Assembly: GCA_050183625.1 (NCBI GenBank)
Contig: JBFXBD010000014.1
Coordinates: forward strand, 14,545-78,544
Origin: Gammaproteobacteria bacterium
Lineage (GTDB): Bacteria > Pseudomonadota > Gammaproteobacteria > JADZEE01
Reading direction: 5' to 3'
Length of the DNA stretch: 64,000 bases
Positions 36,930 to 64,000 of this stretch are shown here, one piece after another. Under the pieces are notes generated by a model. That model was not told the origin of the DNA. It was given only the letters and a program-made list of their open reading frames with translations, and ran no database searches. The translations under genes and the position numbers were made by a program. Numbering within the stretch: the stretch's first letter is position 1; each line of letters opens with the position of its first letter.

Positions 36930-37661
36930 TCAACCGAGCTTCTGCATCAGGCCGGAGAGGTTGGACAGCGACAGCAGGTGGGCGTAGACGAGATCCATGA
37001 ACCCGCGCCCGACGAGATCCTGCAATCGCTCGCCCGGCAGCGATTTCAGGCGGTCCCGGCTTACGCAGGAGAACCCGGCGAGCGAGAACTTCTCGCCGGT
37101 CTTCATCTCCACGTTCGCCTGCACCGGCTCGAGCAGCGCCAGTTCGACCAGCAGCCGGCAGAACTCGGTCGTGACCTGCGTCTGGCGCTGATAGTCCTTG
37201 AGGAACTCGACCGACCGCGCCAGCAGCGCTCCGTGGCTGCCGTCGTCGTTGATCAGCCGCTCGCCTTCCTTGACGGTATTGAACCCGGCGTAGCTCTCGT
37301 CGATGCAGACCGTGAAATTGGCTCCGGTGGAATCCGCGGCGAGGATGAACGGATAGCGCCGGACATAGGCCGGCACGTAGCTGCCCTTCCAGGTCCCGTC
37401 GGCGGCGAGGAACAGGTTCTGCTCGGGCTTCAGGCCCAGCAGCACCACCGGTACCACTGCATCGCCACCCGCGGCCGCGAATACGATGGCGTACTCGCGT
37501 GCGGCCACCGGGAACTCGATGCCCGCCACGTAGACGCAGTTGGTCCTGGCCGCGAATCGAAAGCCCGGATCCGGGTCCACGTACCAGGCGCCATGCCGCT
37601 CGCGCGACAGTGGCACGACCTTGCGGTAGAACAACGGCAACTGCGGCTGCGGCTCGGCCAT
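36930..37661 (-). CDS. SapC family protein
   Basis: 243 aa. LPLFYRKVVPLSRERHGAWYV, NCVYVAGIEFPVAAREYAIVFA, YVPAYVRRYPFIL match my recollection of the SapC (PF07277) family. The ATG lies 13 nt after the TpsA stop, and a GGAG RBS sits inside that gap. Confidence 0.75.
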   Translation of the reverse strand: MAEPQPQLPLFYRKVVPLSRERHGAWYVDPDPGFRFAARTNCVYVAGIEFPVAAREYAIVFAAAGGDAVVPVVLLGLKPEQNLFLAADGTWKGSYVPAYVRRYPFILAADSTGANFTVCIDESYAGFNTVKEGERLINDDGSHGALLARSVEFLKDYQRQTQVTTEFCRLLVELALLEPVQANVEMKTGEKFSLAGFSCVSRDRLKSLPGERLQDLVGRGFMDLVYAHLLSLSNLSGLMQKLG

Positions 37662-37674
37662 CGGAACTCCAGGG

Positions 37675-40600
37675 TCAGTAGCTGCGCAGCGCGCGCGGCA
37701 TCGTCAAATCGCCGGTGAACACCACCGGGCGCATGGCACCGGCGTCGAACCAGGGCCACGCATTGACGTCGGCCGACGGCACCGGAACCATCGGAGTCGC
37801 ATCGGCATCGTCGAACTCGCCGCCGGAGCCCTGCTTCGGCGCGGGTGCCGGAGCCGGCGCGGGCGCCTCCGGAGCCGTCGCACCGGGCTCGGGCTGCGCG
37901 CCCGCGGGCGGGTTGCCCTCCTCCGGCACGTCCCCCGGCGGGCTGCCGCCATCGTCGAATTCCCCACCCGGGGCGGCATCGTCCGAGCCGCCGGAACCGT
38001 CGTCGAACTCGCCGCCACCCTCGTCGAACTCGCCCGCGCCCTCGCGTTCGCTGAACGCGGCAAGCTGCTGGCGCAGGGCCTCGAATCGTGCAATCTGCTC
38101 CCGGAAGCCGGCGATGAGCTTCTCGACCCGCTCCGGATCCTCCTTGCCGGCGGCACGACGCTGCTCGAGCTCGGCGATGTTCGCCTGGATCTTCTCGACC
38201 AGCGGCCCGATTTCGTCCTCCGTGATCGCCGGGCCGCAGCCCTCGAGCTCTTCGCACTGTTCCGGCGGCATGCCGATGGCGAAGCCGATCTGGCCGATGA
38301 GTTCCAGCTCCTGTTCGAACACGCTGATGTCGATGAAGCCTAGCTGCGCCAGCGCCTCCAGGCCGGTGCTGATCAGGCCGAGGAAACCCTGGACCTGCCG
38401 CAGGTTGGAGAACACTTCCGCGCCCAGCAGGTTGCGCAGCGACTGCACCAGGGCGAGATCGTCGCTGTTGAAGGCGGTCGCGTTCGCGCTCGAGGAGGCC
38501 TCGAAGCGCGGCTGCTCCGCGGTGGAGGAGGCCGCGATGTGCGCCTCGCCTCCGCTCAGGTCCAGGCGGATATTGCTGCTGTTGGCGATTTCGTTGTTGG
38601 CGATGATGGTCGCGAAACCGGCTTCGAGCACGGCCACGCCGGCCGCCGGCCCGGTGATGTCGCCGGGGCCGTCGGCCACTGCCTGGCCATTGGCATCCTG
38701 GCGCACCCCGACCGCGATCAGCGTCAGTGCATCGCCGCGCGCGCCGCCCGCGCTGAGGCTGGCATTGAGGTCGATGTTCGCCGCCAGCAGCGTCAGCGGC
38801 CCACCCGAGCGCAAGCCATCGTTGACGGTGATGCGGCTGGCGGTCAGCGCGGTGACGTTCTGTTCCTCGGCCGGCGACTCCATCGGCTTTTCCAGCGCAC
38901 CGCCGATGATGAGGTGGCCGGTGAAGCCGTTCCAGATATTGCCGGGGATGCGGCTCGCCAGGTCACCGGCGTTGGCAATGGTGAGCGTCGCGCCAGCGGC
39001 CGGCACGATGGCCAGGTTGCCACTGCCCAGCATCACCGCCGGGAATACGATGGTGCTGTTGCTGGAGCGCAGGATGACGTCGCCCGAGACGTTGACCGCG
39101 GTTGCGTTGAACGCCAGCGTCGCGGCCGAGATGTCGTTCGACAGGGCGACCGCGCCGGCGGTGAAGCTCAGGCCCGCGTTCGGCTGGTCCGTCATCGGGC
39201 CATTGATGGCGATGTTGCCCGCCCCGGCGTTGAACGCCACCGCGCCGGTACGCGTGATGGTCGCGCCCGGTGCGCCAAGCACGAGATTTCCGCCGCCGGT
39301 CGTAACCGCATTCAGGCCGGCGCCGGCAAGAATGTTGAGGACCGGTGCGATCAGGTTCGTCGCCCCGCCGGCGCCGGAAATCGCGCCGTTGAGGTTGATG
39401 GTGCCGGCGTTGACGTTGAAATTGCCTCCGTCGTAGCTCACCGCCTGGTTGATTGCGACCGCCGCCCCGCCGGCGTCGATGTTGGCATTGCCACCACCGC
39501 CGGCGGTGTTGATCCCGCCATTCAGGGTGATGCCGCCCGGACCGGACAGTGCAATCGAGCCGCCGGCGGTCGTCAACGTCCCGGCGGTGGTGGTGATCGC
39601 ACCGCTGGAGATCACGTTGAGGTTATTGGCGCCGGTGTTCACGCTCGAAGCGATGCTGGTCGCGCCGCCGCGGATCGTCAGGATCCAGGGCAGGACGGCC
39701 GGGGCCGGAGCGCCGATATTGACGTTGACCGCGCCGCCATCGGCCCGGCCGATCACCAGGGAGCCGATGCCGCCGATCGCGGCGAGATCGTTGTTGCCGA
39801 CCGTGAACTGGCCGGCACCGGAGCCGATGCCGACGGTCGCGCCGGCCGCCGCCGGCTGCAGCGTCAGCACGCCGGTTCCGGCGTAGGTCACCCCTGCACC
39901 GAAGGTGACGTCCACCGCCGATATCGTGCGGCCCGCGCCGCCGTTGGCGACGTTGCCATTGAAGGTGACCGTGCCGCCGGTGCTCGTCAGGTCGCCGAAC
40001 AGGTTCTGGATGGTGCCGCCGTAGGTCTGGTCGCCCGAGGTCGTCACGGTACCGAACTGCATCGCCGCACCGTTCAGCGTCAGCGTCGTCAGCGGCGCCG
40101 TGTTGCCGACGTTGCCCAGCACGATCTGGCCGGCGCCGCCGTTGGCGGTCGCGGTCAGGCTGAACGCACCGTTGACGTTCTCCAGCGGGGCGAGAATGGC
40201 ACCCGCGCTGGTCAGCGTACGGTTGCCGGTAAGCGTGATTGCGTCGCCGTCGGCGAGGCCGGCCAGGCCGATGTTGCCGACACCGGTCGTGACGTCGCCG
40301 TTCAGCAGCAGGGCGCCGCCGCCGATGACGTTTACCGTGCCGACGTTGACCGTCTCGATCTGGATGGTGCCGGTTCCCGCGTTCAGCGCCAGCGTGCTGC
40401 CGGCACCCTGCACGGTGGTATTCGTCCCGCCGTTGGCACCCAGGTTCAATGTTGCGCCGGTTGCCGAGGAATCGAAGGTGACTGCGCCGGTGAGATTCAC
40501 CGTGGCCGCATTGCTCAGATCCAGTCCGCCGGTCGCCACGGTTCCGGTCGGTGTCGCGCCGTCGTTGGTCAGGCCGTTGATGGCAATGACGTTGTTGTCG

Positions 40601-43600
40601 AAATTGAGAGGGATGCCGGCGGCGGTCGACAGGCCACCGACGTTGGCATTGATGCCGGCGGCGAAGTTCACCGCCGTTGCACCGTCGATGGTCAACTGGC
40701 CGAGCGGGCCGCCGATGATGGGTATCGCACCCGTACCGAGGCTGCCCAGGAAGTCAATCGCGCCGGTCGCGCTCAGGCGCACGCCGTTGAACTCGTTGAT
40801 GGCGCTGGACAGCGTGCGCTGGAACTCGATCCTGCCGCCGGTGGAGGTGATCTGTACGCCTGCGGCCACCGGCGCGGTCGGATCGACGATCACGTCGTTG
40901 TTGAAGATGAGATCGCCGTTGACGGTGATCGCGTTGGTCACCACCTGCGCGGTGCCGGTCAGCGTCAGGCTCGGTCCCGGCAGGATGGCGGACGGACCAT
41001 TCACCGAGCCGCTCAGGCGGATGATCCCCAGCGGCGTCTGCAGTTCGAGCGGGTCGTGAACGCTGATCGCGCTGAGATCGGCGTCGATCAGGTGCGAACC
41101 GGTCACCGGTGTGCCGATGATGATCTTGAGGAACCCGTCCTTGATGGCGGCGAAATCGGTCGGCGAGATGTCCACCGTGCAGGTGCCGAGGCAGGCACTT
41201 GCCGGGCTGCCCAGGCCGATGCTCGCGCCCACGGACAGGGAGCGCAGCGTGATGGTGCTCGCGCCGGGCCCCGGCGCGACCGCGGTCGACCGGACCGAGT
41301 CGACACCACTGGTGATGGCGATGTCGCCATCGGCGGCGACCTCGATGTTCTGCCCGTCGACGACCTGGATGCCGGTGACGGTACCGATGTCGTCGGTGAC
41401 CGAGCCGATCGTGACGCCCGACTGATCGAACACCTGGAGCGAGCCGCCGGCCATGTCGGCCGCGATCGTCGTGAAGTCGTTGTTGACGTCGGCGAGGACG
41501 ACGTTGGCGCCGGCGCGGATGAGCAGGCCGCCGACGATCTGCACCGAACCGGTCTGGGTGATGCCCTGCGCGGTGTTCAGGCTGAGCACGCTGGACGCGA
41601 ACTGTGGCGGCGCGGCGATGGTGCCGAGCGTGATCGCGCCCGAATCCGCCTTGCCCAGGCGCACGTTCTGGGCCCGGATCGAATCCGCCTTGGCGATGTT
41701 CAACGCGCCCGCGCCGCCGGACAGGCCGATGGTCACGGCCGCCGAAGTGGGCTCGATGCGTACGCGAGTTGCTGCGCCGGAGCCGATGCCCGAGCCGCCG
41801 ATCTGCGCGGAGGCGACGACGGTGCCGGAATCCCCCGTGAGATCGATGTTGCCGGTGGACAGCACCGCGGAATTCGCCTGCAGATCGATCGCGCCCGTGC
41901 CGGCGTTCAGGGTGACGGTCTGGGCATTGCCATTGACGACGTTGCCGGTCAACACCGTGATGCCGGTGGCGTTGGCGGTAAATGCGCCGGTGGACACCGA
42001 GCTCAGCAGGTTCAGGGCCCCGGCACCGCGCAGGCTCACGCGTCCGCCGGCCGTGGTCGTCGTACCGACCTGCGCGCCCGCGGCGAAATCCAGCGCGTCC
42101 GCACCGACACCTGCCGCGCCCTCGATGTTGCCGGCGGCGGTCAGGAGGATGGAGGTTCCGGCAGTGATGTCGGCCAGGTTGTCGTTTGCGTCGTCGACGA
42201 TCGTGCCGGTCGTGGCCGTGAGCGTCGCGCTGCCGGCGGCGGTCACCGTGCCGACGACGATGTTGCCGGCGTCGCTGGTAACGGCGAGGTTACCGGCGCC
42301 GTTCTGCACCAGGCTGGTCAGGGTCAGGCCGTCCGTCTCGCGCAGCAGCAGCGGGCCGTTGTTGGCGGTCGCGGTGATGCTGGCGACCGTGGTGCGCAGG
42401 GGGAGCCCGCCGATGCCGAGCCCGGCGGTCAACTGCGCGTCGGTGGCCGTAATGCCGGCGCCGCCGCCTTCGGAAATGGCGCCGGTCGTGGCATTGAGCG
42501 TGACGACGTCCGGTGCCGACACGGCGACCACGGTGATGTCGCCCGCGGCGGCGTTCACGACGACGTCGTTGCCGGCGCCCGCGGCGTTCAGCGAGGTCAG
42601 CACGATGCCGTTCTGCTCGGCGACGAAGATGCCGCCCGCGCCCGCATTCGCGGTCAGTGTGGTGAGCGAGGTTCCGATCGGGTTGGCGAGCGTGCCGACG
42701 GCGTTGGCGGCCGTCAGGATGGCGTTGGACGCCGTGATGAAGGTCGCGCCGTTGCCGTCGTCGACGATGCCGCCGCCGGTCGCGTTCAGCGCCACCGCGT
42801 TCGGCGCGTTCACGGTGCCGACGGTGATGTTGCCGGTCGCCGCCGACACGGAGATGTCGTTGCCGGCACCCGCAGCCGTCACCGTGCCGATGACCAGCGC
42901 GTTCGCCTCATTCACGAACACGCCGCCGGCGGCGGCCGAGGCATTCAACGTGCCGACGTCTGTGTCGATGTCGTTGACCGCCAGGCCGATGCCGCCATTG
43001 GCAACCAGGTTGGCGCTCTGCGCCGTGATGCCCGTGCCGTTGTTGCCGTCGTCCAGGATCGAGCCGAACGCGTTCAACGTCAGGTTGCCGTTCGCGAGCG
43101 TGATGCTGTCGACGATGATCCCGTCCTGCTCCTGGAACTGGGCGTCGCCGGCGCCGGTGACGGCAGCGGTGATGCGAAGCACCTGGATTTCCAGCGCGTC
43201 GGCCGCGCCGATACCGGAGCTGGCGCCCAGCATTGCACCGCCGATCAGCGCGGAGATATTGGAAACCGCGCCGTTGCCGTCGATGATCGCGCCCGAAGTG
43301 CTGGTGATGCTCACCGCCGCATTCACGCCGCTGGTGCTCACCAGGCGCCCGAGCGTCACGCTGCCGTCGGAGAGCAGGGTAATGGTGCCAACGCCGGCGT
43401 CGAACAGCGACACGCCCATCGTGACGGCGCCGCCGTTGTTTCCGGCGGCGTTGTCCGCGGTGACGGAGATGTCCCCACCGCCGCTCGTGACCACGGCTGC
43501 GGCACCGAACTGCGCATGGCGATTGGCCGTGATGGTCACCGCGCCGGTCGCGGAGATCTGGTCGTTGACGACGATGTCGGTGGCCGCGCCCGCGGCCGCC

Positions 43601-46600
43601 TGCTGGTTGATCGTCACGGTGGTTCCGGCCTGGACCGTCGCGCCGGCATCGATCAGCACGCCCGCCGTCGGTACGGTGGCGGTGGGGTCGAAGATATCCG
43701 AACCGGTCATGAGCAGCGAACTGCCGGCGAGCACCTGTCCCGCGGGCTTCACCCAGATTCCGCCGCTGCCGTCCGGCGCACCGCCGACCGTGGGCCCGTC
43801 CTGGCCGTTGTCCGCGAGCAGTTGCAGGCTCGACCCGCCGGTCGTCTGCACGATTGCGTTGATGATGATGTCGCGGTCGGCGGCGATGCCGAAATTCACG
43901 TTCTGGATGACGTTGGCGTTGATGACGACGTCGTCGCCCGCGCCGTTCAGCGTGATGTTGCCGCTGCCGACCGAAGGATTCACGTTCAGCGTGATGCCGC
44001 CGCCGCCCAGCGTCAGCGTGCCGGTGGCTGCGCCCTGGGTGGTGAGCTGGCCGTTCACCGCAATGGAGGTCGCCGACACGGTGATGTCGCCCGTGGTCGT
44101 AATCGCCTGGCTCAGGTCCTCGGCGCCGGCGCTCGCGATCGTGAACGAAGCCAGCGGCGTCGTGCCGCCGACCGCGCCGGTGAACTGCACGACCCCCGTT
44201 CCGGCCGTGAGCGTCAGCGCCTGCGCGCCGTCCACGGTCCCGAGGACGATGTTCTTGTTCGAGGAAGTGATGCTCACCGCCCCGCCCGAGAGCTTGGTCG
44301 GGCCGAACGTCATCTGGTTGAAGCCGGTTCCGGTCCAGGTCAGGCCGTCGAGCTGAACGTTCGCCAGCGCGGTGGCGGTGTCGCCCGTCGCGAGCGTCAC
44401 GTTGTCCTCGAAGCGCAGCGTCGTTCCGGCGCCGCCGACGATCCCGGAATTGGCGCCGAAAGTACCCTGGAGGCTCACCAGCCCGGTGACGCCTGCCGCC
44501 ACGTCCAGGGCGGCGCCCGTGCCGCTGCCGAGATTGCTCACGGCACCGGCAACCGTCGTCGTTCCGGCGCCGATCCCGGCCACCAACGCCAGGTTCTGGC
44601 CGCCGCCCGCGATCGACGCGATCTGGATATTGCCGCCGTTGGAGTTCAGGGTGACCGCGGCGCCGGAGAGCGTGGTGGCGCCGAAGTCGATGCCGTCGAA
44701 GCTCGACCAGTTCAGGCCGTCCAGGCGCACCGTGCCGGCAATCGCGGTCGCGGTGTCACCGTCGGCGAGCGTCACGTCGCCGTCGAAGCGGAACTGGCTG
44801 GTTGCGCCGGGCGCGGAAATGCCCGAGGTGCCGGCGAGCGTGTTCTGGAACCGCACCAGCCCGGTGACGCCGTTGGCCACCGTGAGCGCGGCACCGGTGC
44901 CGCTGCCCAGGCCGGTGACCGCGCCGGTGAAGGTGGTCGTGCCGGAACCCACGCCTGCGGCCAGCGTCAGGTTCTGGCTGCCGCCGGTGAGCGAGGCGAT
45001 GGAGATGTTGCCGCCGTTGGAATCGAGCGAGACGCTGCCGCCGGAGAGTGTCGTCGCGCCCAGGGTGATCCCGTCGAAGCTCGACCAGTTCAGCCCGTCG
45101 AATTGCACCGTCGCCAGGGTGGTCCCGGTGTCGCCATTGCCCAGGGTGACGTTGCCGTCGAAGCGCAGCGAGGTACCGGCGCCGGCGGTAATGCCCGAGG
45201 CGCCGGCGAGCGTGCTCTGGAACCGCACCAGGCCGGTGACGCCCGCCGCGACATTCAGCGCCGGGCCGGTACCGTCGCCGAGGTTCGTGACCGCACCGGT
45301 GAAGGTGGTCGTGCCCGCGCCGATGGCCGCGCTCAGCGCCAGGTCGTTGCCGCCCGCATCCAGCGTGCTGCCGAACAGGATGTTGCCGCCGGCGCTATTG
45401 AGCGCCACGGCGCCGGTGAAGGTCACCGCGCTCTGGAAGGTGATGTCGTCGGCCGTGGTGGTGATGTCCGCGGCGGTCGACACCGCGCCGGTGCCGTCCT
45501 GCAGGAAGGCGCCGTCCAGGGACATGTCCGCCGCCGCGGCGAGCGCGAGCGTACCGCTGTTGGTGAACGTCACCGTGCCGTTGCCGGCGGTCGCAATCGA
45601 CTGGCTGACCGTGATGTCGCGCGCGGTGACTGCGAGGTTCTGGATCTTGGTGCCGTTGCCGATCTTGCCGCTGAAGGTCACGTCGCCCTTGCCCGCCTTC
45701 ACGGTCAGGCCCTGCGCACCGGCCGCGGTGGCGTCGATCGCACCGGTGAAGCTTGCGTTGCCGCCGCCACCGACGCCGTCATCGGTGTTCACGGTGACCG
45801 GATTGATGCCGAGCTTGGTGGTCGTCGCGTCGACCGTGGCCGCGCCACCGCCCGATACGAGGTTGCCGTTCAGCGTGATCGTCGTCGCCTTGAGCCCGAT
45901 CGCGCCGCCGCCGGTGTTGATGCCGCCAGCCGCGATGGTCAGGGTGTTGGGACTGCGAAGCTGGATCGCGCCGTTGCCGGTGCTGGTCGCGGTGACCTGC
46001 GAGCCATTGGCGAGATCCAGGAAGGCATCGCCCGGCCCAGGGCCGCGGATGTTTCCGCCCGCGCTCAGCGTGATGAGGCCGCCGGCAGTGATGTCGGTCG
46101 TGGTGTCGTCGGCATCGTCGAGGATGTCGCCCGCGGTGGCGGTGACGTTGACGGTGCCGGTGGTGGAGATCGCGCCGATGAGCGCGTTGGCCGCCTGCTG
46201 CACCAGCGCGACGTTGCCGGCGCCGCCGGTGGCGACGTTCCAGGTCGTGTTGCCTACCCCGCCGGTCGAGGTGACCGCGACGTCGTTGCCGCCGGTACCG
46301 GTGATGGTCAGTGCACCGACGTTGACGATGAGGATGCCGTCCGCGTTGTTGGTGCCGTGCCCCACGTCGGGGTTGGTATCGGTATTGTCGATGCCGATCG
46401 TCCCCGCCGAGGTCAGGGTCAGCGTGCCGCTGGTCTGGAACGCCACGCCGCTGCTGTTGTCGCGGATGAGGCCGTTGGCGGCGTTCAGCGTCAGGTTCTG
46501 CCCGCCGCCGCCGAAGGCCGGCGCGGTGCGGTCGATGACGATGTCGCCGCCCGTCACGTTCACGGTGATGTTCTGCGACGAGAACAGCGCCGCCATCTCC

Positions 46601-56728: not shown

Positions 56729-56858
56729 CGGTTTTTTTACTGCGGTCGATGTCGAGATGAGGCGCTTAATACCCTGAACTGAAAATTGTTTCGGAATGAT
56801 GCCAGCCGGATGTGTTGCTATCAGCATACGCCGCGGGCGGCAGTGCGGCCACCCGCCG

Positions 56859-57869
56859 TCAACCGGCCTTTGCCGGCGTGGCGGCGAGCGTCTTGCGCCA
56901 GGACTCGATCTGGTCGTCCGGCGCCTGCAGGCGGTAGGTCTCGCGGGCCTTGGCCGTGATCTGTTCGCGGACCTTGGCGCCGGCCTCGCGCAGCAGCAGT
57001 TCCCTGGCCTGGGCCTCGACCTCGGTGAACTCCAGCTTGCGACCGGGGACGATGGCGCCGCGTTTGACCAGGTGATAGCCGCTGGCGGTGCGGACCGGCT
57101 TGCTGATTTCGTCCTCCGGCAGGTCCGCCACGACGGTTCGCACTTCCGGCAGCAGGTCGTTGACCTGGAGCAGGCCCATGTAACCGCCGGAGAACCGGCT
57201 CGCCTGGTGCCTGGAATAACGTGCCGCCGCGTCGGCGAAGCTGATCCGGCCCGCCCGCAGATCGGCCGCCACGGCGTTGGACTCCTTTTCCGCCGCTGCC
57301 CGGGCCGCGGCCGGCGCGTCTGCGGCGGCCGGCCAGAAGATCTGCCAGACGTGGACCTGATCCGGGACCGCGAACTTGTCCCGGTTGTCGTCGAAGATCT
57401 TGCGGACCTGCTCCGGCTTGGGAAAGTCCGCGCCGAGGGTCTTGCGCACCAGCTCGCTGAGGTAGGTTTCCACCAGGATGCGTTCGCCCTGGCGCCGCAT
57501 GAGCCCGGCAATGGTCGGATTGTTCTGCAGGTTGTTGGCCCGCGCGGCGGCAATCAGGGAGCGCAGCGCCCCCTCGCCGTCGACGAAGCGCTTGAACGCA
57601 GTCGGATCCTCGACCACCGCCTTGCCCTGCGCCGGCGGCAGGAAGGCCAGCAGACCGCGGATGTCCTCCAGGCCGACCGCGGCTGGTTCGCCGAACATCG
57701 GGCCCGGCCCTGCGCCAGCGACGGCATTGGCGGGCGCCGCGGGCGCACCGGCGGTGGCCGGCGCGGGGGCGGACGCACTCCCGGCGGCACCGGGTCCGAA
57801 CCTGTTTGCGACCAGGGCACCGATGACCACTCCGGCAGCAAGCAGGGCGATGTACGGGACGGCTTTCAT
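56859..57869 (-). CDS. parvulin-type peptidyl-prolyl cis-trans isomerase (PpiC/SurA-like, membrane-anchored or exported)
   Basis: Within ORF 56859..57941; start taken at ATG 57869 (MKAVPYIALLAAGVVIGALVANRF, a hydrophobic N-terminus). Parvulin core VHVWQIFW ... SRFSGGYMGLL ... ISKPVRTASGYHLVKR. Confidence 0.8.
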   Translation of the reverse strand: MKAVPYIALLAAGVVIGALVANRFGPGAAGSASAPAPATAGAPAAPANAVAGAGPGPMFGEPAAVGLEDIRGLLAFLPPAQGKAVVEDPTAFKRFVDGEGALRSLIAAARANNLQNNPTIAGLMRRQGERILVETYLSELVRKTLGADFPKPEQVRKIFDDNRDKFAVPDQVHVWQIFWPAAADAPAAARAAAEKESNAVAADLRAGRISFADAAARYSRHQASRFSGGYMGLLQVNDLLPEVRTVVADLPEDEISKPVRTASGYHLVKRGAIVPGRKLEFTEVEAQARELLLREAGAKVREQITAKARETYRLQAPDDQIESWRKTLAATPAKAG

Positions 57870-58262
57870 GGCATTGTTCACGGGTGTCTCCAGGAACGTG
57901 GGGCGCAGCAACGGCCGGCGCATGGCAAATCCGGCGTTCAAATCGTAGAATCCCGGGCAATGTGTCGCGGCTGCGACTGCCAGAAGATTATTTTGTTATT
58001 CTAAAGAATGTTCCAGGCATTAGTTCAATCTGTTTGGAAAATTCCACGATCCCTGGCGTACGCGTCCGCGAGCGCGGCACCCGGGCAAAAGCAGTGGATG
58101 GGGGGAGATTCTGCATCCTGGCCGCGCCGGGGAGCGGCGCGCCGTCGCCACCGCAGCCGGCGAATGACCCGTGGCGGATGCCCCATGATGGGTGAAGTCG
58201 CGTCGATTCGTCGGAATCGCCCGGCCCGGGCCGGTACCTAGGAGCGCAGCAACCGCACGTTC

Positions 58263-59165
58263 ATGGCACCCAAGACCCAAAATCTTGCCATCCTCTTCGC
58301 CGACGTGAGCGGCAGCACGCGGCTGTTCGAGATCCTGGGCGACGTCATCGCCCGCCACAAGATTGCCGAATGCCTGGCGCTGCTCACCGACGTGACCAAG
58401 CGCCACAAGGGCACGGTGATCAAGACCATCGGCGACGAGGTGATGTGCACCTTCCCGACCGCCGACGCCGCGGTCACCGCCGCCTGCGAGATGCACGAGG
58501 CGCTCGAGGACGAATCCACCGAGATGACCGAGAAGGGGCCGGTGTCGTTGCGGATCCGCGTCGGCCTGCATTTCGGCCCCGCCATCCTGGAAGGCGGCGA
58601 CGTCTTCGGCGACGCGGTGAACGTCGCCGCGCGCATGGCCTCACAGGCCAAGGCGGGGCAGATCATCACCACCCAGTCCACGGTCGAGGTGCTCGCGCCG
58701 ATGCTGCGGGCCGGCACCCGGTTCGTCGACCGCGCACCGGTGAAGGGCAAGAAGGAAACGATCGACATCTACGAGGTGATCTGGCAGCAGGAGGACGTCA
58801 CCCGCATGTCGACCGCCGTCAAGGTCGACAAGCTCCCCTCCGCCACCATGACGCTGCGCTACAACGACGAACGGATCGTCATCGGCGAAGACCGCTCCGT
58901 CGCCGTGCTGGGCCGCAGCAAGACGGCGGACGTTTCCGTGAACGAGAGCCTGGCCTCGCGCCAGCACGTGCGCATCGAATACCGCCGCGGCAAGTTCTTC
59001 ATCATCGATCAAAGCACGAACGGCACCTACGTCAAGCTCGCGACCAACGAGGAGGCATTCCTGCGCCGCGAGGAAATGCCGTTGTCCGGGTCGGGACGCA
59101 TCAGCCTTGGGCGCGCGTTCGCCGAGAACCCCCAGGAGGTCGTCCATTTCGCCTCCGATACCTGA
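58263..59165 (+). CDS. class III adenylate/guanylate cyclase domain fused to a C-terminal FHA domain
   Basis: Cyclase: ILFADVSGSTRLF, IKTIGDEVMCTF, GLHFGPAILEGGDVFGDAVNVAARM. FHA: VLGRSKTADVSVNESLASRQHVRIEYRRGKFFIIDQSTNGTYV, with the conserved G-R, S-x-x-H and N-G residues. Confidence 0.85.
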   Translation: MAPKTQNLAILFADVSGSTRLFEILGDVIARHKIAECLALLTDVTKRHKGTVIKTIGDEVMCTFPTADAAVTAACEMHEALEDESTEMTEKGPVSLRIRVGLHFGPAILEGGDVFGDAVNVAARMASQAKAGQIITTQSTVEVLAPMLRAGTRFVDRAPVKGKKETIDIYEVIWQQEDVTRMSTAVKVDKLPSATMTLRYNDERIVIGEDRSVAVLGRSKTADVSVNESLASRQHVRIEYRRGKFFIIDQSTNGTYVKLATNEEAFLRREEMPLSGSGRISLGRAFAENPQEVVHFASDT

Positions 59166-59267: not shown

Positions 59268-60050
59268 ATGACCACGACTTCCCTCGGCTGGCATTCCGCG
59301 ACCGTCACGCACGTCGGCAACGTTCGCAAGCTGAACGAGGACTCGTGCCTGGATCGCAACGACATCGGCCTGTGGGTGGTGGCCGACGGCATGGGTGGCC
59401 ACGCCGCCGGGGATCTGGCCAGCCAGCTCGTCGTCAGCACGCTGGCGAAGGTGCCCGAGGGAAATTCCCTGAGCGAGTTCGTGGACGCGGTCGAGGACGC
59501 CATCCTGTACGCCAATTCGCGGCTGGTGAACCTGTCGGCCGAAACGCAGCAGACCAGCGGCAGCACCGTGGTTGCATTCCTCGCCCGCGAGCAGCACGGC
59601 ATCATGCTCTGGGCGGGTGACAGCCGGCTGTACCGGCTGCGCGCCGGGCGGTTGAAGCAGCTCACCACCGATCATTCCCAGGTCGAGTACTACGTCCAGA
59701 AGGGCATGCTGACCCGCGAGCAGGCCCTGAACCATCCGGCCGCGAACATGGTCACGCGCGCGGTCGGCGCCGGCCCGGACCTGTACCTGGATGTGGACGT
59801 CACCGACCTCATGGCCGGCGACCGCTATCTGCTGTGCTCGGACGGGCTGGACAAGCACGTCCCCGATCCCGACATCGCCGCGCTGCTCGGCATGGGCGAC
59901 CCGCAGAGCGCGGCGCAGAATCTCATCGACGCGACGCTCGCCCGCGGCGCGACCGACAACGTCACGGTCTCGGTCATCGAGATCAGGCCCGTGGCGAACG
60001 GCGGTAAAGCACCCGCCAGGGGCGCCGATAGCGCCACGGGCGGCGGCTGA
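59268..60050 (+). CDS. PP2C-family Ser/Thr protein phosphatase
   Basis: VGNVRKLNEDS, VVADGMGGHAAGDLAS, LLCSDGL, ATLARGATDNVTVSVIE. Confidence 0.9.
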   Translation: MTTTSLGWHSATVTHVGNVRKLNEDSCLDRNDIGLWVVADGMGGHAAGDLASQLVVSTLAKVPEGNSLSEFVDAVEDAILYANSRLVNLSAETQQTSGSTVVAFLAREQHGIMLWAGDSRLYRLRAGRLKQLTTDHSQVEYYVQKGMLTREQALNHPAANMVTRAVGAGPDLYLDVDVTDLMAGDRYLLCSDGLDKHVPDPDIAALLGMGDPQSAAQNLIDATLARGATDNVTVSVIEIRPVANGGKAPARGADSATGGG

Positions 60051-60082
60051 AGCGCCGACCGATACCGACGAGGGGACCGATC

Positions 60083-63000
60083 TTGGCCGACTTCAAGACC
60101 GCACTGCAGGCATTGGCGCGCAACGAGATCAAGCTCGAGGCGCTGGTGAAGAACATGGACAAGCTGCTGCGCAAGCAGCCTGCCCTGGCCCAGCAGATGC
60201 TGGGCGAGCTGCGGGATGCCTACGCCAACGACGTCATCGACGCGCGCACCTATGCGTCGCTGAAAAAGCGCGTGCAGGATGTCGCCGGGGCGGGCGTGGA
60301 AGCCGGCGGCAACGCCGACGAGCGCACCCGCGTCGCCGCGGGCGACGGTGACGAACGCACGCAGTTCGCCCCGGCCGACGACCGCACCCAGGTCCTGAGC
60401 GACGCGGACATGGCCGCAATCGCCGAAGAGGCGCGCGCCTCCACCCGCATCGACATCACCACCGGCGAGACCACCGGCGGCATCGACTTCGATCTGAGCA
60501 CGCCCTCCACCGGCTCGGGTAGCTGGACCGGCACCGCCACCGGCGCCGGCGCCAGCACCGGTACCGGCGCCACCGGCACGGGCTGGGCGCAGCCCGGGCG
60601 GCCGCCGGCGGCCGAGTCGGTCAAGCTCGGCCCGGGTTCGGTACTCAAGGAACGCTTCCAGCTGCTGGAAGTGCTCGGTGTCGGCGGCATGGGCACCGTC
60701 TACAAGGGCATCGACAAGATCAAGGAGGAAGCGCGCGACAAGAACCCGTACGTCGCGCTCAAGGTCCTCAACGAGGACTTCAAGCAGCATCCCGACGCCT
60801 TCATCGCGCTGCAGCGCGAGGCGAGCCGGCAGCAGAAGCTGGCCCATCCGAACATCGCCACGGTCTACGATTTCGACCGCATCGGCGGCACCGGCAGCAC
60901 CGTGTTCATCGTCATGGAGCTGATGGAAGGCACCCCGCTCAACAACTACATCAAGAAGACGGTCAAGTCCCGCAACGGGCTGCCGTTCGCGGAGGCGTGG
61001 CCCATCATCCAGGGCCTGGGGCACGGCCTCGTCTACGCGCACGAGCGCAAGATGGTCCACTCGGACTTCAAGCCCGGCAACTGCTTCCTCATCAAGGACG
61101 GCTCGGTCAAGATCCTCGACTTCGGCATCGCGCGCGCGGTGAAGAACCCGCTGCAGGGCGACGCCGAGAAGACCCTCTTCGATCCCGGCAAGCTCGGCGC
61201 GCTCACCCCCGCCTACGCAAGTGCCGAGATGCTCGAAGGCCTGGACCCGGATCCTCGCGACGACATCTACGCCCTGGCCTGCGTCGCCTACGAGCTGCTG
61301 ACGGGCCGGCACCCGTTCAACAAGGTGCCTGCGAACTCGGCGCGCGAGAACAAGCTCGTGCCGGCGCCGATCAAGGGCCTGAAGCGCAGGCAGCTGAAGG
61401 GGCTGCTGCGCGGGCTGGCCTTCAACCGCGAGGATCGCAGCCAGAACGTGCAGCAGTTCCTCGAGGAACTGGAGGGCACCAGCACCTGGTACAAGAATCC
61501 TTTCGTCATCGGCGGGGCGCTGCTGGTGGTCGCGGCCGTGGCCGGCACGCCGCAGATGATCAGCTACATGCACAGGAAGACGATCGACGCGGCCGTCGCC
61601 GACATCAACAGCGGCGACGCGGCACGCATCGTCGCGGTGCTCGACCAGTTGCCGACGCTCAAGCCGAACGAGAAGACGAAGTTCGATGCCGACGATCAGA
61701 AGCGCATCCTCGATGACGCGCGCGAGAAGATCCAGGCGTATTTCCAGAACCAGATTGCCGACCACACCGCCAAGGGCAGCTGGGCCGAGGCGCAGTCCGC
61801 CCTGGCGCGATTCACGTCCCTGTACCCGGACTCCTCCACTGTCAAGGAGACCACCGACAAGTTCGACGAGGCACGCAGCACCGCGGAGAACCAGTTGAGC
61901 GCCCGCTACAACCGCATCCTCGAGGAAGGCCGGCTGCTGCCCGACGAAGGCGCGGACGACCTGGGCGACGTGCTCACCGCGATCCAGAAATTCGATCCGC
62001 GAAACCCGCTGCTCGGTTCGCCGCGCGTGTCCAACGCCTTCCTGACCCAGGCCGAGCAGGCGCTCGCGTCCGGCGATTTCGAGCTGGCGCAGAAGCTGGT
62101 CGATACCGGCAAGGGCGTGGTCGCGCACTTCGCCGGCGCCAAGAAGCAGGACATCTACCTGGCCAATCTCGGCGACAAGGTGCGCAACCTGCGCGACCGC
62201 GCCGAGCAGGACCGGCTGATTGCCGGCGCGGAGCAGACCATTCGCGCGCAGCAATCGGCCTTGAAGGCGCTGCCGAGCTTCGCCGCGGTCGCCGACGCGG
62301 TCGTGCAACTGGCCGCCATCGCGCCGGCCAATGCCCTGCTCGGGGAGGTCTCCGGCGCCCTGAAGCCGGTGCTCGCCGCCGAAGTCTCGCGCATCCGCAG
62401 GGATCAGGACTGGGGCGCGGTCGACCCGCTGTTCGTCGACTACAAGCCCATGCTCACCGCGTTGCGCGCCGACGCCGAGCTCCCGGCGCTGGATGAGGAA
62501 CGCCGGGATTACAACCAGAAGGCCGACGGCTACCTGCTGAAAATCGCCGCGGCGCTGGGCCAGGGCCGCATCGCCGGCGCCGGCGCCGAGAATGCGGTCG
62601 CGATCGCGGACGAACTCGCCAGGACGCTGCCGGGCAGCACCCGCGCGTCACAGGCGCGCGACATGATCGCTCGTGCCTACCTGCGCCAGGCGCGCATCGC
62701 CCGTGCCGGAGACGACTACGCCAAGGCCCGGGCCCAGCTCGACGCAGCGCTTGCGCGCAAGCCCGGCCCCGACGTGCAACAGGCACTGGCCGCCGAGTCC
62801 AACATCATCAGCCGGATGGAGAAGCTGCCGGCGGCGGACCGCGACCGCATGAAGGCCGAGCAGAAATCCGAGGCCGCCTCCGCTGCGGCCGAGGTCGACA
62901 AGCTGCTGGCGCAGATGGAGCCCACGCGCCGCAGCGCGGCGGCCGTGCTCGCGGCCGTCGATCGGCTCGAGGCGCTCGATCCGCTCGCGCCGAAGGTCGG

Positions 63001-64000
63001 CACCACGCGCGCCGACGTCGGCGCCAGGCTGGCGGCGGCGGCCGACAAGGCCGGCACGACCGGCAATTGGGACGTGGCCGTGGTTTCCATGCGCGACGCA
63101 CTGGCCTATATGCCCGAGTCCGACAAGCTCGCCGCCACGCTCGAGAAGCTGCAGCAGGGCGCCAAGACCGCGCTCGCCGAGGCGCAGAAGCGCATCATCG
63201 CCGAGGGCAAGCAGAAGATCGCCGAGTTGATGGCGAAGAAGACTTTCGATCACAACTGGGACCTGGCGCTGACGAACGAATTCGCCCGCGTCCAGCCGCT
63301 GGTGCCAGACACCGATCCGTGGCTGGCCCAGACCCGGCGCGAACTCGGCGCGATGTACCTGGGCCGGGCCGCGCAGATGCGCGAGGAACAGCGTTACGAG
63401 GAGGCCGGCAGCCTGATCGCCAAGGCCGAACGCTACGCAGCCGATCTGCCGGCGTTCAGCACCGAGAAGGGCGCGCTGGCCGCGGCCCAGGCGGAGTTCG
63501 AGAAGGCGCGCCAGGCAGAGCTGCAGAAGGCGGAAATCGACAGCCTCAAGCAGAGCCTGGTCTCCCAGGCCAAGGCCAAGGACGTCAGCAACGCGACCAA
63601 GGCGCTCGAGAAGCTGCGCGCGCTGCTGCCGGCGGACGACGCCTTCCTCACCACGGAGATCCCCCAGCTCCTGGGCGACGCCTACCTGAAGACCGCCGAC
63701 GCACGTGCGGCCAAGAACGACTTCCTCGCCGCCCTGAAGGTGGCCAGGGAAGGCCTCACGGTCGCCCCGAACCACCCGGGCCTGAAGAAGGCCGTGCAGA
63801 AGTACACCGTCGACGGCGACGCCGCGGAGTTGAACCAGATTTTCGGCGGCGACTTCACGGAAATCGACGTCGCCCGCGTCGGCGCCCTGCTCAAGGAGGT
63901 CGATCAGGTCAACTCCACGCGCGGCGCAGAGCTGAACGCGGCCCTGGAGAAGAAGGCCGCGGATCGGATCCGGGCGCTGGCCGCAACCCAGCCGGCGATC
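60083..64000 (+). CDS. transmembrane Hanks-type Ser/Thr protein kinase with a long helical-repeat C-terminal region (3' end beyond window)
   Basis: Absent from the ORF track because no stop occurs before base 64000. I translated the frame by hand from stop TAG 60029-60031 to the window end and it stays open. The first start after a GAGGGGA RBS is TTG 60083; the alternative is ATG 60155. Kinase motifs: GVGGMGTVY, VALKVL, HSDFKPGN, ILDFGIA, YASAE. TM helix FVIGGALLVVAAVAG at ~61503-61547, then >800 aa of alpha-helical TPR-like sequence. Confidence 0.85.
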   Translation, partial: MADFKTALQALARNEIKLEALVKNMDKLLRKQPALAQQMLGELRDAYANDVIDARTYASLKKRVQDVAGAGVEAGGNADERTRVAAGDGDERTQFAPADDRTQVLSDADMAAIAEEARASTRIDITTGETTGGIDFDLSTPSTGSGSWTGTATGAGASTGTGATGTGWAQPGRPPAAESVKLGPGSVLKERFQLLEVLGVGGMGTVYKGIDKIKEEARDKNPYVALKVLNEDFKQHPDAFIALQREASRQQKLAHPNIATVYDFDRIGGTGSTVFIVMELMEGTPLNNYIKKTVKSRNGLPFAEAWPIIQGLGHGLVYAHERKMVHSDFKPGNCFLIKDGSVKILDFGIARAVKNPLQGDAEKTLFDPGKLGALTPAYASAEMLEGLDPDPRDDIYALACVAYELLTGRHPFNKVPANSARENKLVPAPIKGLKRRQLKGLLRGLAFNREDRSQNVQQFLEELEGTSTWYKNPFVIGGALLVVAAVAGTPQMISYMHRKTIDAAVADINSGDAARIVAVLDQLPTLKPNEKTKFDADDQKRILDDAREKIQAYFQNQIADHTAKGSWAEAQSALARFTSLYPDSSTVKETTDKFDEARSTAENQLSARYNRILEEGRLLPDEGADDLGDVLTAIQKFDPRNPLLGSPRVSNAFLTQAEQALASGDFELAQKLVDTGKGVVAHFAGAKKQDIYLANLGDKVRNLRDRAEQDRLIAGAEQTIRAQQSALKALPSFAAVADAVVQLAAIAPANALLGEVSGALKPVLAAEVSRIRRDQDWGAVDPLFVDYKPMLTALRADAELPALDEERRDYNQKADGYLLKIAAALGQGRIAGAGAENAVAIADELARTLPGSTRASQARDMIARAYLRQARIARAGDDYAKARAQLDAALARKPGPDVQQALAAESNIISRMEKLPAADRDRMKAEQKSEAASAAAEVDKLLAQMEPTRRSAAAVLAAVDRLEALDPLAPKVGTTRADVGARLAAAADKAGTTGNWDVAVVSMRDALAYMPESDKLAATLEKLQQGAKTALAEAQKRIIAEGKQKIAELMAKKTFDHNWDLALTNEFARVQPLVPDTDPWLAQTRRELGAMYLGRAAQMREEQRYEEAGSLIAKAERYAADLPAFSTEKGALAAAQAEFEKARQAELQKAEIDSLKQSLVSQAKAKDVSNATKALEKLRALLPADDAFLTTEIPQLLGDAYLKTADARAAKNDFLAALKVAREGLTVAPNHPGLKKAVQKYTVDGDAAELNQIFGGDFTEIDVARVGALLKEVDQVNSTRGAELNAALEKKAADRIRALAATQPAI

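Follow-up and report, generated by a model that had tools for sequence, protein, structure and literature searches.

A two-partner secretion (TPS) operon encoding a giant exoprotein lies back to back with an operon encoding a cyclase-FHA fusion, a PP2C phosphatase and a receptor-type Hanks kinase in the window (the whole stretch of DNA analyzed here, 64 kb), and the same pairing was repeated in more than 100 loci. The two gene sets probably act jointly, in a way not previously described, because the pairing recurs even where the gene order differs. The favored reading, which is held tentatively, is that both sets constitute one conserved system, with a kinase-cAMP signaling core and a dedicated secretion operon as its probable output. 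All carriers are uncultured Gammaproteobacteria, from many environmental metagenomes.

Gene content and organization of the locus

The features of the locus, in window coordinates, are as follows.

35936-36445, plus strand: Sel1-repeat protein with signal peptide, between leuC and the SapC gene (tblastn); membership in the system uncertain
36930-37661, minus strand: SapC-family gene, 243 aa (Pfam PF07277, E 3.5e-66), closing the leftward set
37675-54630, minus strand: TpsA exoprotein, 5651 aa (TPS domain PF05860, residues 62-305, E 5e-37)
37675-38574, minus strand: C-terminal module of TpsA, about 300 aa (sequence comparison of TpsA ends)
49738-52251, minus strand: 372-nt (124-aa) tandem repeats within tpsA, 6.7 copies (Tandem Repeats Finder)
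54775-56604, minus strand: TpsB outer-membrane transporter, 609 aa (Pfam ShlB PF03865, E 5e-20; POTRA_2, E 2e-9)
56605-56858, minus strand: parvulin-tpsB gap, 254 nt, containing a second, weaker AT-rich patch and a candidate sigma-70-like promoter
56859-57869, minus strand: parvulin-type PPIase, 336 aa (Pfam Rotamase_2, Rotamase, Rotamase_3)
57870-58262, between the strands: divergent spacer, 393 bp (sequence and composition)
58263-59165, plus strand: class III (predicted adenylate) cyclase-FHA fusion, 300 aa (Pfam Guanylate_cyc, E 3e-23; FHA, E 7e-12)
59268-60050, plus strand: PP2C-family Ser/Thr phosphatase, 260 aa (Pfam PP2C_2, PP2C)
60083-64000, plus strand: receptor-type Hanks Ser/Thr kinase, TTG start, cut at the window end (Pfam Pkinase, E 2e-34)

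The seven genes and their domains described in the earlier note agree with these coordinates and Pfam assignments. The tight junctions that it had ascribed to the leftward set are present between tpsA and the SapC gene (13 nt) but not between tpsB and tpsA (144 nt) or between the parvulin gene and tpsB (254 nt). Because of these wide gaps, together with a second AT-rich patch and a promoter candidate upstream of tpsB, the leftward set may comprise more than one transcript. The Sel1 gene shares 54-59% identity with the Sel1 genes at the same position in three related loci (L164, L163 and L042; tblastn), and it persists in L042, a locus without TpsB, TpsA and parvulin.

A scan of the 64-kb window for AT-rich patches (60-nt windows, GC ≤ 0.42) found three in total. 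The strongest (57963-58061, minimum GC 0.27) lies within the 393-bp spacer, and the patch singled out there by the earlier note is indeed the most AT-rich of the whole window. The second (56731-56792, 60-nt GC minimum 0.40) is in the parvulin-tpsB gap, which also contains a sigma-70-like TTGCTG-17-TATACT candidate on the minus strand, read by eye and not reported by the automated promoter scan. The spacer contains the element TGTTATTCTAAAGAATGTTCC at about 57994-58014; AGAATAA-type elements were found again in the spacers of related loci, and a longer spacer motif, TTTTCCCTTTAAGAATAATGGAGTATGATGA, is common to 16 loci. CRP- or FNR-like sites were not enriched among 67 spacers, and the gene content of the cluster includes no cNMP-binding protein and no DNA-binding regulator.

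Cyclase-FHA protein and PP2C phosphatase

The FHA reader is fused to a nucleotide cyclase, as had been claimed, with Guanylate_cyc at residues 3-166 and FHA at residues 215-283 (Pfam). All six catalytic residues of the cyclase (metal-binding D14 and D58, adenine-specifying K54 and D113, transition-state N120 and R124) are invariant in 22 relatives and align with those of the cyclase Ma1120, the closest solved relative (4wp9, E 9e-20). Because of the Lys/Asp pair, the enzyme would be an adenylate cyclase, with cAMP as its predicted product. In the same 22 relatives, the FHA residues G217, R218, S232, H235, N253 and G254 are invariant (motif definition GR, SxxH, NG as in PMC1262709). Both cyclase-FHA subfamilies have an invariant D-x-T-R linker motif around Thr180, which reads EDVTR in the window. 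The 300-aa family is highly conserved: among its thousands of metagenomic relatives, the 120 closest share about 70% identity. Scores against the NCBIfam OdhI and FhaB/FipA models were far below their cut-offs. Paralogs of the cyclase-FHA protein were also observed in other gene contexts (L021 and L034). In L034 the paralog has a kinase and an MMPL transporter on its flanks, each with a cNMP-binding domain, and a cNMP output is plausible given these neighbors.

The phosphatase has the motifs RKLNED, DGMGGH, GDSR, DG and DN in its translation and scores 207.7 bits with the NCBIfam Stp1/IreP family, slightly under the 230-bit cut-off. The motifs of both the kinase and the PP2C are intact.

Receptor-type kinase and SPOR-domain partner

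The kinase has a pre-kinase tail (residues 1-191), a kinase domain (about 192-465) and a single clear hydrophobic segment (residues 472-493, nt 61496-61561), followed by 813 extracytoplasmic residues visible before the window ends, in agreement with the very large extracytoplasmic part noted earlier. Complete homologs have 1430-1700 aa and a C-terminal FGE-sulfatase domain (PF03781; E 2.5e-20 in L081, 3.5e-19 in L001), which is known from these homologs, the corresponding part of the window's kinase lying beyond position 64000. A further conserved gene, outside the window, follows the kinase gene on its 3' side in 54 of 61 related loci. Its product is a membrane protein with SPOR domains, and in L081 it also has an FGE-sulfatase domain (PF03781, E 1e-43). 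The system reaches beyond the window, with an FGE-sulfatase-like kinase end and a SPOR-domain membrane protein.

At what we take to be the position of the FGE active-site cysteine pair, read by eye and not aligned to a solved FGE, the pair is absent: the kinase C-termini retain one Cys (RGGAxxDxxxxC), and the domain of the partner protein has no Cys at the active-site position. The FGE-sulfatase domain of the kinase homologs appears to be non-catalytic and lectin-like. Domains of this family have been described as ligand binders of the C-type-lectin fold (PMC7159879).

In the pre-kinase tail, [DE]-x-T-x-[VFL]-type motifs occur 1.94 times per protein versus 0.26 in shuffles, and 87% of 109 kinases have at least one, the motif having been defined after viewing the alignment and the sequences used being related to each other.

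Secretion operon

The features of two-partner secretion are present in the leftward set, with a TPS domain in TpsA and an Omp85-type barrel with POTRA in TpsB; tpsB and tpsA are on the same strand, and their adjacency is kept in related loci. From this gene content, TpsB-dependent export of TpsA is predicted. More than 100 loci have such a cluster with a TpsB relative of 32-61% identity. TpsA scores 81.8 bits with the NCBIfam filamentous-hemagglutinin N-terminal domain (TIGR01901, cut-off 29.1) and is laid out as an N-terminal TPS domain, a repeat-rich shaft and a conserved C-terminal module, with a tandem array in tpsA of 83% matches (score 3353, Tandem Repeats Finder).

The C-terminal module comprises a hydrophobic stretch, QCEExEGC(G/A)P with paired cysteines, a stretch resembling a coiled coil, GGEFDD-type acidic repeats and a Pro-rich stretch, and its last residue is aromatic. 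TpsA has five cysteines in all, two of them within this module. The module, which matched no Pfam family, is kept at the TpsA ends of L164, L163, L162, L126 and L064 and is missing in the rearranged-type TpsA of L139 and L146. L162 also encodes a 199-aa paralog of the module (blastp 2e-13) with a signal-peptide-like N-terminus. Contact-dependent inhibition (CdiA/CdiB/CdiI) was considered and rejected: the last 985 aa of TpsA match no Pfam family, toxin domains included, the C-terminal sequence has no VENN (pre-toxin) motif, and the gene downstream of tpsA encodes SapC and not a small CdiI-like immunity protein.

The parvulin has the N-terminus MKAVPYIALLAAGVVIGALV, a hydrophobic anchor or signal sequence, and its gene was found in 56 of 63 genome loci. 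It is also kept in L167, where the TPS genes are absent. SapC matches positions 1-220 of the 220 in its profile, with no signal peptide evident by eye. Relatives of SapC are encoded directly 3' of tpsA in L164, L162, L166 and L168, and the gene is missing from several loci (L139, L146). Its AlphaFold2 model (mean pLDDT 85.5) had no PDB match, neither by fold nor by sequence.

Co-conservation of the two gene sets

The proposal of the earlier note that the divergent gene sets belong together was borne out by their co-conservation, which had been named beforehand as the test and held from both anchors. Of the 63 species-level genome loci with sufficient flank around the cyclase-FHA anchor, 60 have TpsB next to it. 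In the reverse search, anchored on TpsB in metagenomes, every locus with sufficient flank contained the PP2C (45/45) and the kinase (32/32), the kinase module being still present at TpsB identities down to 32%. The loci with the pairing range in GC from 0.37 to 0.72, and the repeated pairing is more than chance.

In the common form, the locus is flanked by leuCD and Sel1 on one side (present in L042, L163 and L164) and by ubiG-like and HAD genes on the other, although the flanks vary even here (L162). In a rearranged form, found in 11 loci, cyclase-FHA does not head the kinase operon and the PP2C-kinase genes are directly divergent from tpsB; where cyclase-FHA was found, it is usually behind tpsA (behind tpsA or SapC and on the TPS strand in L139, L146, L166 and L168). 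The rearranged form has different flanking genes, yet the genes of the set remain clustered.

Two loci, L042 and L167, keep the kinase, PP2C and cyclase-FHA genes with TpsB and TpsA absent, in genomes that could encode TPS genes elsewhere. TpsB of this subfamily was never seen without the kinase module in the surveyed loci. Because TpsB is never found without the module and the module occurs without TpsB and TpsA, these observations fit a signaling module as the core and a secretion operon as its dependent partner.

Proposed mechanism and alternatives

Here it is proposed that the signaling core would consist of the receptor-type Hanks kinase and a bitopic partner with a peptidoglycan-binding SPOR domain. 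An envelope or surface cue would lead the kinase to phosphorylate its own N-terminal tail at Thr motifs, and perhaps also Thr in the tail of the partner or in the cyclase linker, and the FHA domain of cyclase-FHA would dock on these phospho-threonines. Since class III cyclases are active as dimers, docking could unite the cyclase domains and lead to cAMP, with the PP2C resetting the switch. The parvulin-TpsB-TpsA-SapC operon would be the dedicated partner and the most likely output: cAMP, through a receptor encoded elsewhere, may act at the shared AT-rich control region to tune how the giant surface protein is produced or deployed. This direction of control is suggested by the two TPS-less loci (L042 and L167). 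The gene content of the cluster, with neither a cNMP-binding protein nor a DNA-binding regulator, and the spacers without CRP- or FNR-like enrichment speak against this reading.

Control in the reverse direction is considered rather unlikely. TpsA would then be the input, its periplasm-retained C-terminal module being read by the kinase ectodomain and the SPOR partner, and cAMP would report its status (secretion in progress, surface contact, or cleavage or release of TpsA). This would agree with the conservation of the module and its paired cysteines in the common-architecture TpsA ends, and also with the separate version in L162, whose signal-peptide-like N-terminus fits a periplasmic role; further points are the more than 800 extracytoplasmic residues and the lectin-like domain of the kinase, the spacers without CRP-like site enrichment, and the FhaB prodomain, which was reported as intracellular (Noel et al. 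2012, as cited in PMC5422565). The position of cyclase-FHA in the rearranged form, on the TPS strand and directly behind tpsA or SapC, suggests that sensor and transducer would be made together. However, the TpsA of L139 and L146 has no such module and the linkage is still present, and the retention of signaling genes in L042 and L167 would be unexpected were TpsA the sole input. It is likewise doubtful that the TpsA filament serves as an outside-in contact sensor, in which the touch of a surface, a particle or a neighbor cell would alter the periplasm-retained module and signal via the kinase and SPOR protein to cAMP.

The earlier note had suggested post-translational gating of secretion by the kinase/phosphatase/FHA triad; on this reading, FHA would bind a secretion-pathway protein that has been phosphorylated. 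The locus does encode, intact and tightly linked to a secretion operon, the three kinds of protein known from threonine phosphorylation in type VI secretion, and SapC, with no evident signal peptide, could be a cytoplasmic phospho-target, but this reading found no support and is very unlikely. The FHA protein of type VI systems docks on a machine of the cytoplasm and inner membrane, whereas in two-partner secretion TpsA is exported through Sec and TpsB forms a barrel in the outer membrane, so that no dedicated machine is offered to an FHA scaffold; we know of no cytoplasmic part of this pathway for FHA to bind. The FHA domain is instead fused to a cyclase whose catalytic residues are all retained across thousands of relatives, which argues that its task is to make a nucleotide signal and points to a second-messenger output, and SapC is absent in L139 and L146. 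No type VI genes were found among the window genes scanned, and the TagH model was matched by the FHA domain only (30 bits versus a cut-off of 120). It is also improbable that the two sets are adjacent without functional coupling, merely through intact inheritance of the region in one clade. Plain adjacency is weak evidence alone, because the flanking housekeeping genes are about as well conserved as the pairing itself (50 of 53 common-architecture loci have the ubiG-like gene), and the two architectures are not fully independent samples, because both are near gltX; vertical synteny could explain much of the co-conservation, and the signaling module persisting without TpsB and TpsA and the cyclase-FHA paralogs working in other contexts agree with this. 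Against it, the TpsB anchor always found the PP2C and the kinase, even at distant TpsB identities, the set survived both the transfer of cyclase-FHA to the TPS strand and the change of both flanks, the flanks vary even in the common form, and conserved divergent gene pairs generally predict functional association in comparative genomics.

Two-partner secretion is seen as the simplest route, with two proteins under the control of ordinary transcription factors or, in the case of CdrA, of c-di-GMP. If the joint system proposed here is true, a dedicated eukaryote-like kinase, a phosphatase and a phospho-reader-cyclase would be a new control layer for two-partner secretion, through which the cell would either regulate how a giant adhesin is deployed or use the adhesin for sensing. 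Two-partner secretion would become the second secretion route, after type VI, wired to threonine phosphorylation, and a concrete job would be given to three abundant groups, the cyclase-FHA family, the kinases with FGE-sulfatase ectodomains and SapC. Were the contact-sensor reading true, a type V secretion protein would be the basis of an adhesion-receptor signaling pathway.

Comparison with known systems

In the literature searched, no system linking TPS to a Hanks kinase/PP2C/FHA module was found, in line with the earlier note, to which no described type Vb equivalent was known, and a 2017 review of TPS regulation lists no such module. The anti-phage defense systems of PADLOC were rejected as candidates, with merely generic kinase-domain, PP2C and weak cyclase matches and none for SapC, TpsB, parvulin, Sel1 or the partner protein.

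Like PpkA/PppA/Fha1 of the Pseudomonas aeruginosa H1-T6SS, the Hanks kinase, PP2C and FHA protein of this locus are encoded beside secretion genes, and the kinase spans the membrane and has a large periplasmic region. However, the partner here is type Vb, with no type VI gene among the window genes scanned, the FHA domain is fused to a predicted adenylate cyclase whereas the FHA protein there is a scaffold, and the FGE-sulfatase-like domain of the kinase ectodomain and the SPOR-domain partner are further differences.

In SiaABCD of P. aeruginosa, a switch of Thr phosphorylation and dephosphorylation controls a nucleotide cyclase, and c-di-GMP governs CdrAB at two levels: FleQ mediates its effect on cdrAB transcription, and the release of CdrA depends on whether its periplasmic C-terminal tail is cleaved (PMC7647112, PMC5422565). 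This resembles the order proposed here, from a Thr switch to a cyclase, a second messenger and a TpsA adhesin, with c-di-GMP as the messenger there and cAMP as the proposed one here. To our knowledge, the Sia proteins belong to other families, have no FHA domain and are not encoded adjacent to cdrAB, whereas over 100 loci show a physical linkage of the modules described here.

FhaB/FhaC of Bordetella share the N-terminal TPS domain, the repeat-rich shaft and the POTRA domains of TpsB, and the FhaB prodomain, which stays in the cell, is the positional counterpart of the C-terminal region here with its Pro-rich stretch. The Bordetella parvulin chaperone Par27 has been reported to bind FHA, here the adhesin and not the domain. 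We know of no kinase, PP2C, FHA-domain, cyclase or SapC gene at the fhaB/fhaC locus. Control of fhaB/fhaC lies with the BvgAS two-component system (PMC5422565).

GarA/OdhI of Actinobacteria (PknB/PknG) are, as here, small FHA proteins under Thr phosphorylation by Hanks kinases, whose FHA domain can be bound by a conserved Thr motif located elsewhere in the same protein, and the Thr180 linker motif could act likewise. Their targets are metabolic enzymes, which they inhibit, and they lack a catalytic domain, in contrast to the FHA-cyclase fusion linked to a secretion operon. Finally, kinases with a DUF323/FGE-sulfatase (NirV-like) architecture and kinase-cyclase fusions (Myxococcus Pkn2) had been catalogued in 2005 (PMC1262709) as single proteins without assigned partners, whereas here the kinase belongs to an operon with an FHA-cyclase, a PP2C and a SPOR-domain protein, linked to two-partner secretion.

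Gene content of the locus

The region has a G+C content of about 69%, and its genes were called from codon-position GC and then confirmed with Pfam. By these means, all the divergent gene sets and domains described in the earlier note were found: a leftward two-partner secretion (TPS, type Vb) operon and a rightward signalling module, on either side of a 393-bp spacer (57870-58262).

Genes of the locus in the window
35936-36445, plus strand: Sel1-repeat gene with a signal peptide, between leuC and SapC, in an apparent 1.1-kb gap
36930-37661, minus strand: SapC (PF07277, E 3.5e-66)
37675-54630, minus strand: TpsA, 5651 aa (TPS domain, E 5e-37)
54775-56604, minus strand: TpsB (ShlB and POTRA_2)
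56859-57869, minus strand: parvulin
58263-59165, plus strand: class III cyclase fused to an FHA domain, 300 aa
59268-60050, plus strand: PP2C
60083 (TTG start) to beyond the window end, plus strand: Hanks kinase

Of the tight leftward junctions that had been claimed, only TpsA-SapC is tight; the parvulin-tpsB gap is 254 nt long and has its own AT-rich patch. The spacer contains the most AT-rich stretch of the full 64 kb (57963-58061, minimum GC 0.27). A third AT-rich patch of the window (27527-27604, 60-nt GC minimum 0.37) lies intergenically, with gltX on one side and a leucine carboxyl methyltransferase-like gene on the other. The Sel1 protein is 54-59% identical to the Sel1 protein at the equivalent place in three related loci (L164, L163 and L042), and it is kept in L042 despite the absence of TpsB, TpsA and parvulin. 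The window also encodes, at 4302-11594 (plus strand), an HD-domain response regulator and, after it, a 2045-aa hybrid histidine kinase that combines many PAS domains with two receiver domains and an Hpt domain. These two form another large signalling gene pair, with no relation to the TPS-kinase finding.

The window kinase has a 191-residue pre-kinase tail, a kinase domain, one clear hydrophobic segment (472-493) and 813 more visible residues. Exact matching with the PP2C and cyclase-FHA proteins gave no recorded copy of the window's contig, and the end of the kinase and a conserved fourth gene, which lie beyond the window, were read from relatives. Full-length kinase homologs have 1430-1700 aa with an FGE-sulfatase domain at the end, and 54 of 61 loci have the additional gene about 8 nt past the kinase, encoding a protein that has a SHOCT-like helix at its N-terminus, a transmembrane segment and one or two SPOR domains, in some cases with an FGE-sulfatase domain as well. 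The FGE-sulfatase domains, inspected by eye, lack the catalytic cysteine pair and are here read as putative sensor domains and not as enzymes. Domains of this type adopt the C-type lectin fold and serve as ligand binders in other proteins (PMC7159879).

Co-conservation of the secretion and signalling genes

The cyclase-FHA family is very large and tightly conserved, with more than 7900 matches, the best 120 of which have 66-100% identity and are nearly all 298-302 aa long. A scan anchored on cyclase-FHA, with one genome per species, gave 175 relatives; the 80 that were retained all come from uncultured Gammaproteobacteria MAGs or mislabelled bins. The two operons are conserved together elsewhere, as the linkage proposed in the earlier note supposes. 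In loci with more than 3.5 kb upstream, TpsB was present in 60/63 and parvulin in 56/63, and the TpsA N-terminus was found in 42 of the 44 loci with enough reach; on the other side, PP2C was present in 69/71 and the kinase in 70/71. In the reverse scan, which used an alignment of 29 TpsB proteins against metagenome contigs, every one of the 45 loci that had over 3.5 kb of upstream sequence contained PP2C, and every one of the 32 that had over 5.5 kb contained the kinase. The GC of the loci ranges from 0.37 to 0.72, and no cultured carrier was found among the 80 genome loci or in three lists of 120 protein matches. Widespread as it is, the system was seen only in uncultured Gammaproteobacteria.

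Rearranged loci and exceptions

Plain adjacency was rejected as proof of function, because the common architecture, in which cyclase-FHA heads the kinase operon, has equally conserved flanks: in 50/53 loci the next genes after the fourth one encode a ubiG-like methyltransferase and a HAD hydrolase, and on the far side of SapC the window, L163 and L164 all have leuCD and Sel1. In a neighbourhood this stable throughout, adjacency alone cannot separate function from inheritance. They are separated by the changed gene order and flanks of rearranged loci, together with the linkage kept at low TpsB identity, the kinase module being still present down to 32%. Eleven TpsB-anchored loci have no cyclase-FHA gene in the interval from PP2C to tpsB; in most of these, tpsB is directly divergent from PP2C, kinase and SPOR-partner gene, and parvulin may be present or absent. 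Where the relocated cyclase-FHA was found, it usually shares the TPS strand and follows tpsA or SapC (L139, L146, L166 and L168). It lies directly behind SapC in L138, where tpsA was undetected, and beyond the kinase in convergent orientation in L151. The flanks of the rearranged form include DegT, ScpB, an outer-membrane efflux protein, HupE and class I adenylate cyclase; the SapC-side flank also differs in L162, which has the common form. Both architectures have gltX nearby; they therefore go back to a single ancestral locus that was rearranged long ago and were not assembled independently. In two rearranged-type loci (L138:1-1092 and L167:1-2792), the class I (CyaA-type) adenylate cyclase is just beyond the kinase operon, which gives the system another, unrelated source of cAMP as a neighbour.

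The signalling module can persist without secretion genes at the locus. L042 has leuD, leuC, Sel1, cyclase-FHA, PP2C and kinase, with parvulin, TpsB and TpsA absent at the equivalent chromosomal place, and in L167 the kinase and PP2C diverge from parvulin, cyclase-FHA and gltX, with no TpsB or TpsA. The converse, this TpsB subfamily without the kinase module, was never seen in the loci examined, which, from these few cases, points to a signalling core with the TPS operon as its dependent partner. Two more loci depart from the usual pattern: at L024:6342-9391 parvulin is missing and two 448-aa ORFs of identical codon-position GC, which may be an insertion sequence, lie between tpsB and cyclase-FHA, and in L163 a transposase splits TpsA remnants.

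Catalytic residues and candidate docking motifs

The cyclase has the metal aspartates D14 and D58, the adenine-specifying K54 and D113, and the transition-state N120 and R124, all invariant in 22 relatives and aligned with those of the solved cyclase Ma1120 (4wp9, E 9e-20); the GR, SxxH and NG residues of the FHA domain are likewise invariant in the 22 relatives. The kinase has the glycine loop, the VALK lysine, HSDFKPGN (a non-RD kinase) and DFG, and the PP2C has the metal-binding motifs, with a score just below the Stp1/IreP cut-off.

The pre-kinase tail begins with a conserved helix (ADFKTAL), followed by a disordered stretch with acidic-x-Thr-x-hydrophobic repeats (DERTRV, DERTQF and DDRTQV in the window), one Thr of which is near-invariant in the alignment. 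The pattern occurs 1.94 times per tail vs 0.26 in shuffles and in 87% of 109 kinases, an enrichment that is suggestive only, because the pattern was written after viewing the kinase-tail alignment and the 109 sequences are related. A similar helix and similar Thr motifs were seen by eye in the cytoplasmic tail of the SPOR partner. Additionally, a D-x-T-R motif (EDVTR in the window), invariant in both subfamilies, is in the cyclase-FHA linker and could be a GarA-like self-binding site.

Two relatives carry the cyclase-FHA core in other contexts. At L034:7268-14696 a 66% identical paralog, with TPS genes not nearby, has as neighbours a LolA-like protein and two further proteins, a Hanks kinase and an MMPL transporter, each with a fused cNMP-binding domain; these support a real cyclic-nucleotide output of cyclase-FHA. 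At L021:8282-13300 (plus strand), next to a TPR-sensor-cyclase gene, a single 1672-aa ORF encodes TIR-CHAT-cyclase-FHA-FGE-sulfatase-LysM, its cyclase-FHA part being 71% identical to the window protein. Cyclase-FHA is here connected, within a single polypeptide, to an FGE-sulfatase domain and to a domain that binds the cell wall; the fusion looks like a conflict- or death-type effector on the same core.

TpsA and SapC

TpsA contains repeats of 124 aa (372 nt; 6.7 copies, 83% matches, window 49738-52251), and tpsA has a second tandem array of 378 nt in 2 copies (44583-45315); these arrays produce a ladder of shadow ORFs of about 122 aa on the opposite strand. No recognisable toxin domain was found in TpsA. 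Its conserved C-terminal module consists of a hydrophobic stretch, QCEExEGC(G/A)P, a helical stretch, acidic GGEFDD-type repeats, a Pro-rich stretch and a terminal aromatic residue, and is not present in the rearranged-type TpsA. In L162:1-10004, on a 2.6-Mb MAG chromosome, a TpsA called at 7815 aa is followed by a 199-aa protein and then SapC; the 199-aa protein is a paralog of the module (blastp 2e-13) with a signal-peptide-like N-terminus. This separate copy and the paired cysteines fit a module that would be periplasmic, like the FhaB prodomain.

SapC follows tpsA in many loci of both forms, not all, and its sequence had no PDB match. A cupin-like fold for SapC is unsupported, as its confident predicted model (pLDDT 85.5) had no PDB fold match at E <= 0.001.

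Spacer and regulatory sites

In the spacer, the promoter and terminator scans turned up a single weak sigma-70-like site (57922-57951, plus strand) and nothing decisive; a promoter-like site read by eye in the parvulin-tpsB gap was not reported by the promoter scan. CRP-like (TGTGA-N6-TCACA) and FNR-like sites were not enriched over shuffles in 67 spacers, the best CRP-like match of the window being 6 of 10. Rfam at a permissive threshold over 35000-64000 gave just two eukaryotic families, at chance level, and no regulator or cNMP receptor is encoded in the cluster.

A non-coding motif of about 35 nt, TTTTCCCTTTAAGAATAATGGAGTATGATGA(TGACT), is conserved on the plus strand ahead of the cyclase-FHA start codon, its position varying among loci from about -67 to -260 (spacers of L030, L035, L038-L040, L043, L045, L051, L052, L060, L062, L069, L070, L073, L074 and L079), and a related element, AGAATAACAGA, is in the opposite orientation in the window (57994-58014) and its closest relatives. 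The spacer motifs are real in subsets of loci, among which their orientation differs; for this reason, and because no sigma factor or regulator can be assigned, no function is claimed for them.

Proposed mechanism and alternatives

The two gene sets probably form a functional unit. That they are not coupled at all is quite unlikely: inheritance of a stable neighbourhood could account for the common architecture, and function is separated from it by the rearranged loci. Here it is proposed that the receptor kinase would promote phospho-Thr docking of the FHA-cyclase, that the docked protein would produce cAMP, that PP2C would reset the switch, and that the TPS operon, as a dedicated partner of the signalling module, would be the most likely output. 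The full chain is put forward tentatively, at somewhat less than an even chance. Its weakest step is how cAMP would act on the TPS genes, given that neither CRP/FNR-like enrichment nor an RNA family was found and that the cluster encodes neither a regulator nor a cNMP receptor.

The main rival has the direction reversed, with TpsA as the input, and is considered unlikely. The model of the earlier note, in which kinase, phosphatase and FHA gate secretion directly as in type VI secretion, is very unlikely, because the FHA domain is fused to an intact cyclase and the TPS pathway has no known cytoplasmic docking platform. A defence system was also considered and rejected, as the PADLOC matches were to generic domains only; NCBIfam gave no equivalog above the cut-off except for the TPS domain.

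Comparison with known systems

The earlier note knew of no equivalent for type Vb secretion, and none was found in the literature searched on two-partner secretion, TpsA, TpsB or SapC with kinase, FHA, PP2C or cyclase. A 2017 review of TPS regulation includes iron, c-di-GMP/FleQ, BvgAS, CpxRA, PhoBR and cell-surface signalling, and no Hanks kinase (PMC5422565). Kinase-DUF323 (FGE-sulfatase) and kinase-cyclase architectures were already catalogued in 2005 (PMC1262709). The cluster is thus rated here as made of known parts, with a previously undescribed combination and linkage, its nearest analogues including the threonine phosphorylation pathway of type VI secretion and the SiaABCD, c-di-GMP and CdrAB route of P. 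aeruginosa (PMC7647112).
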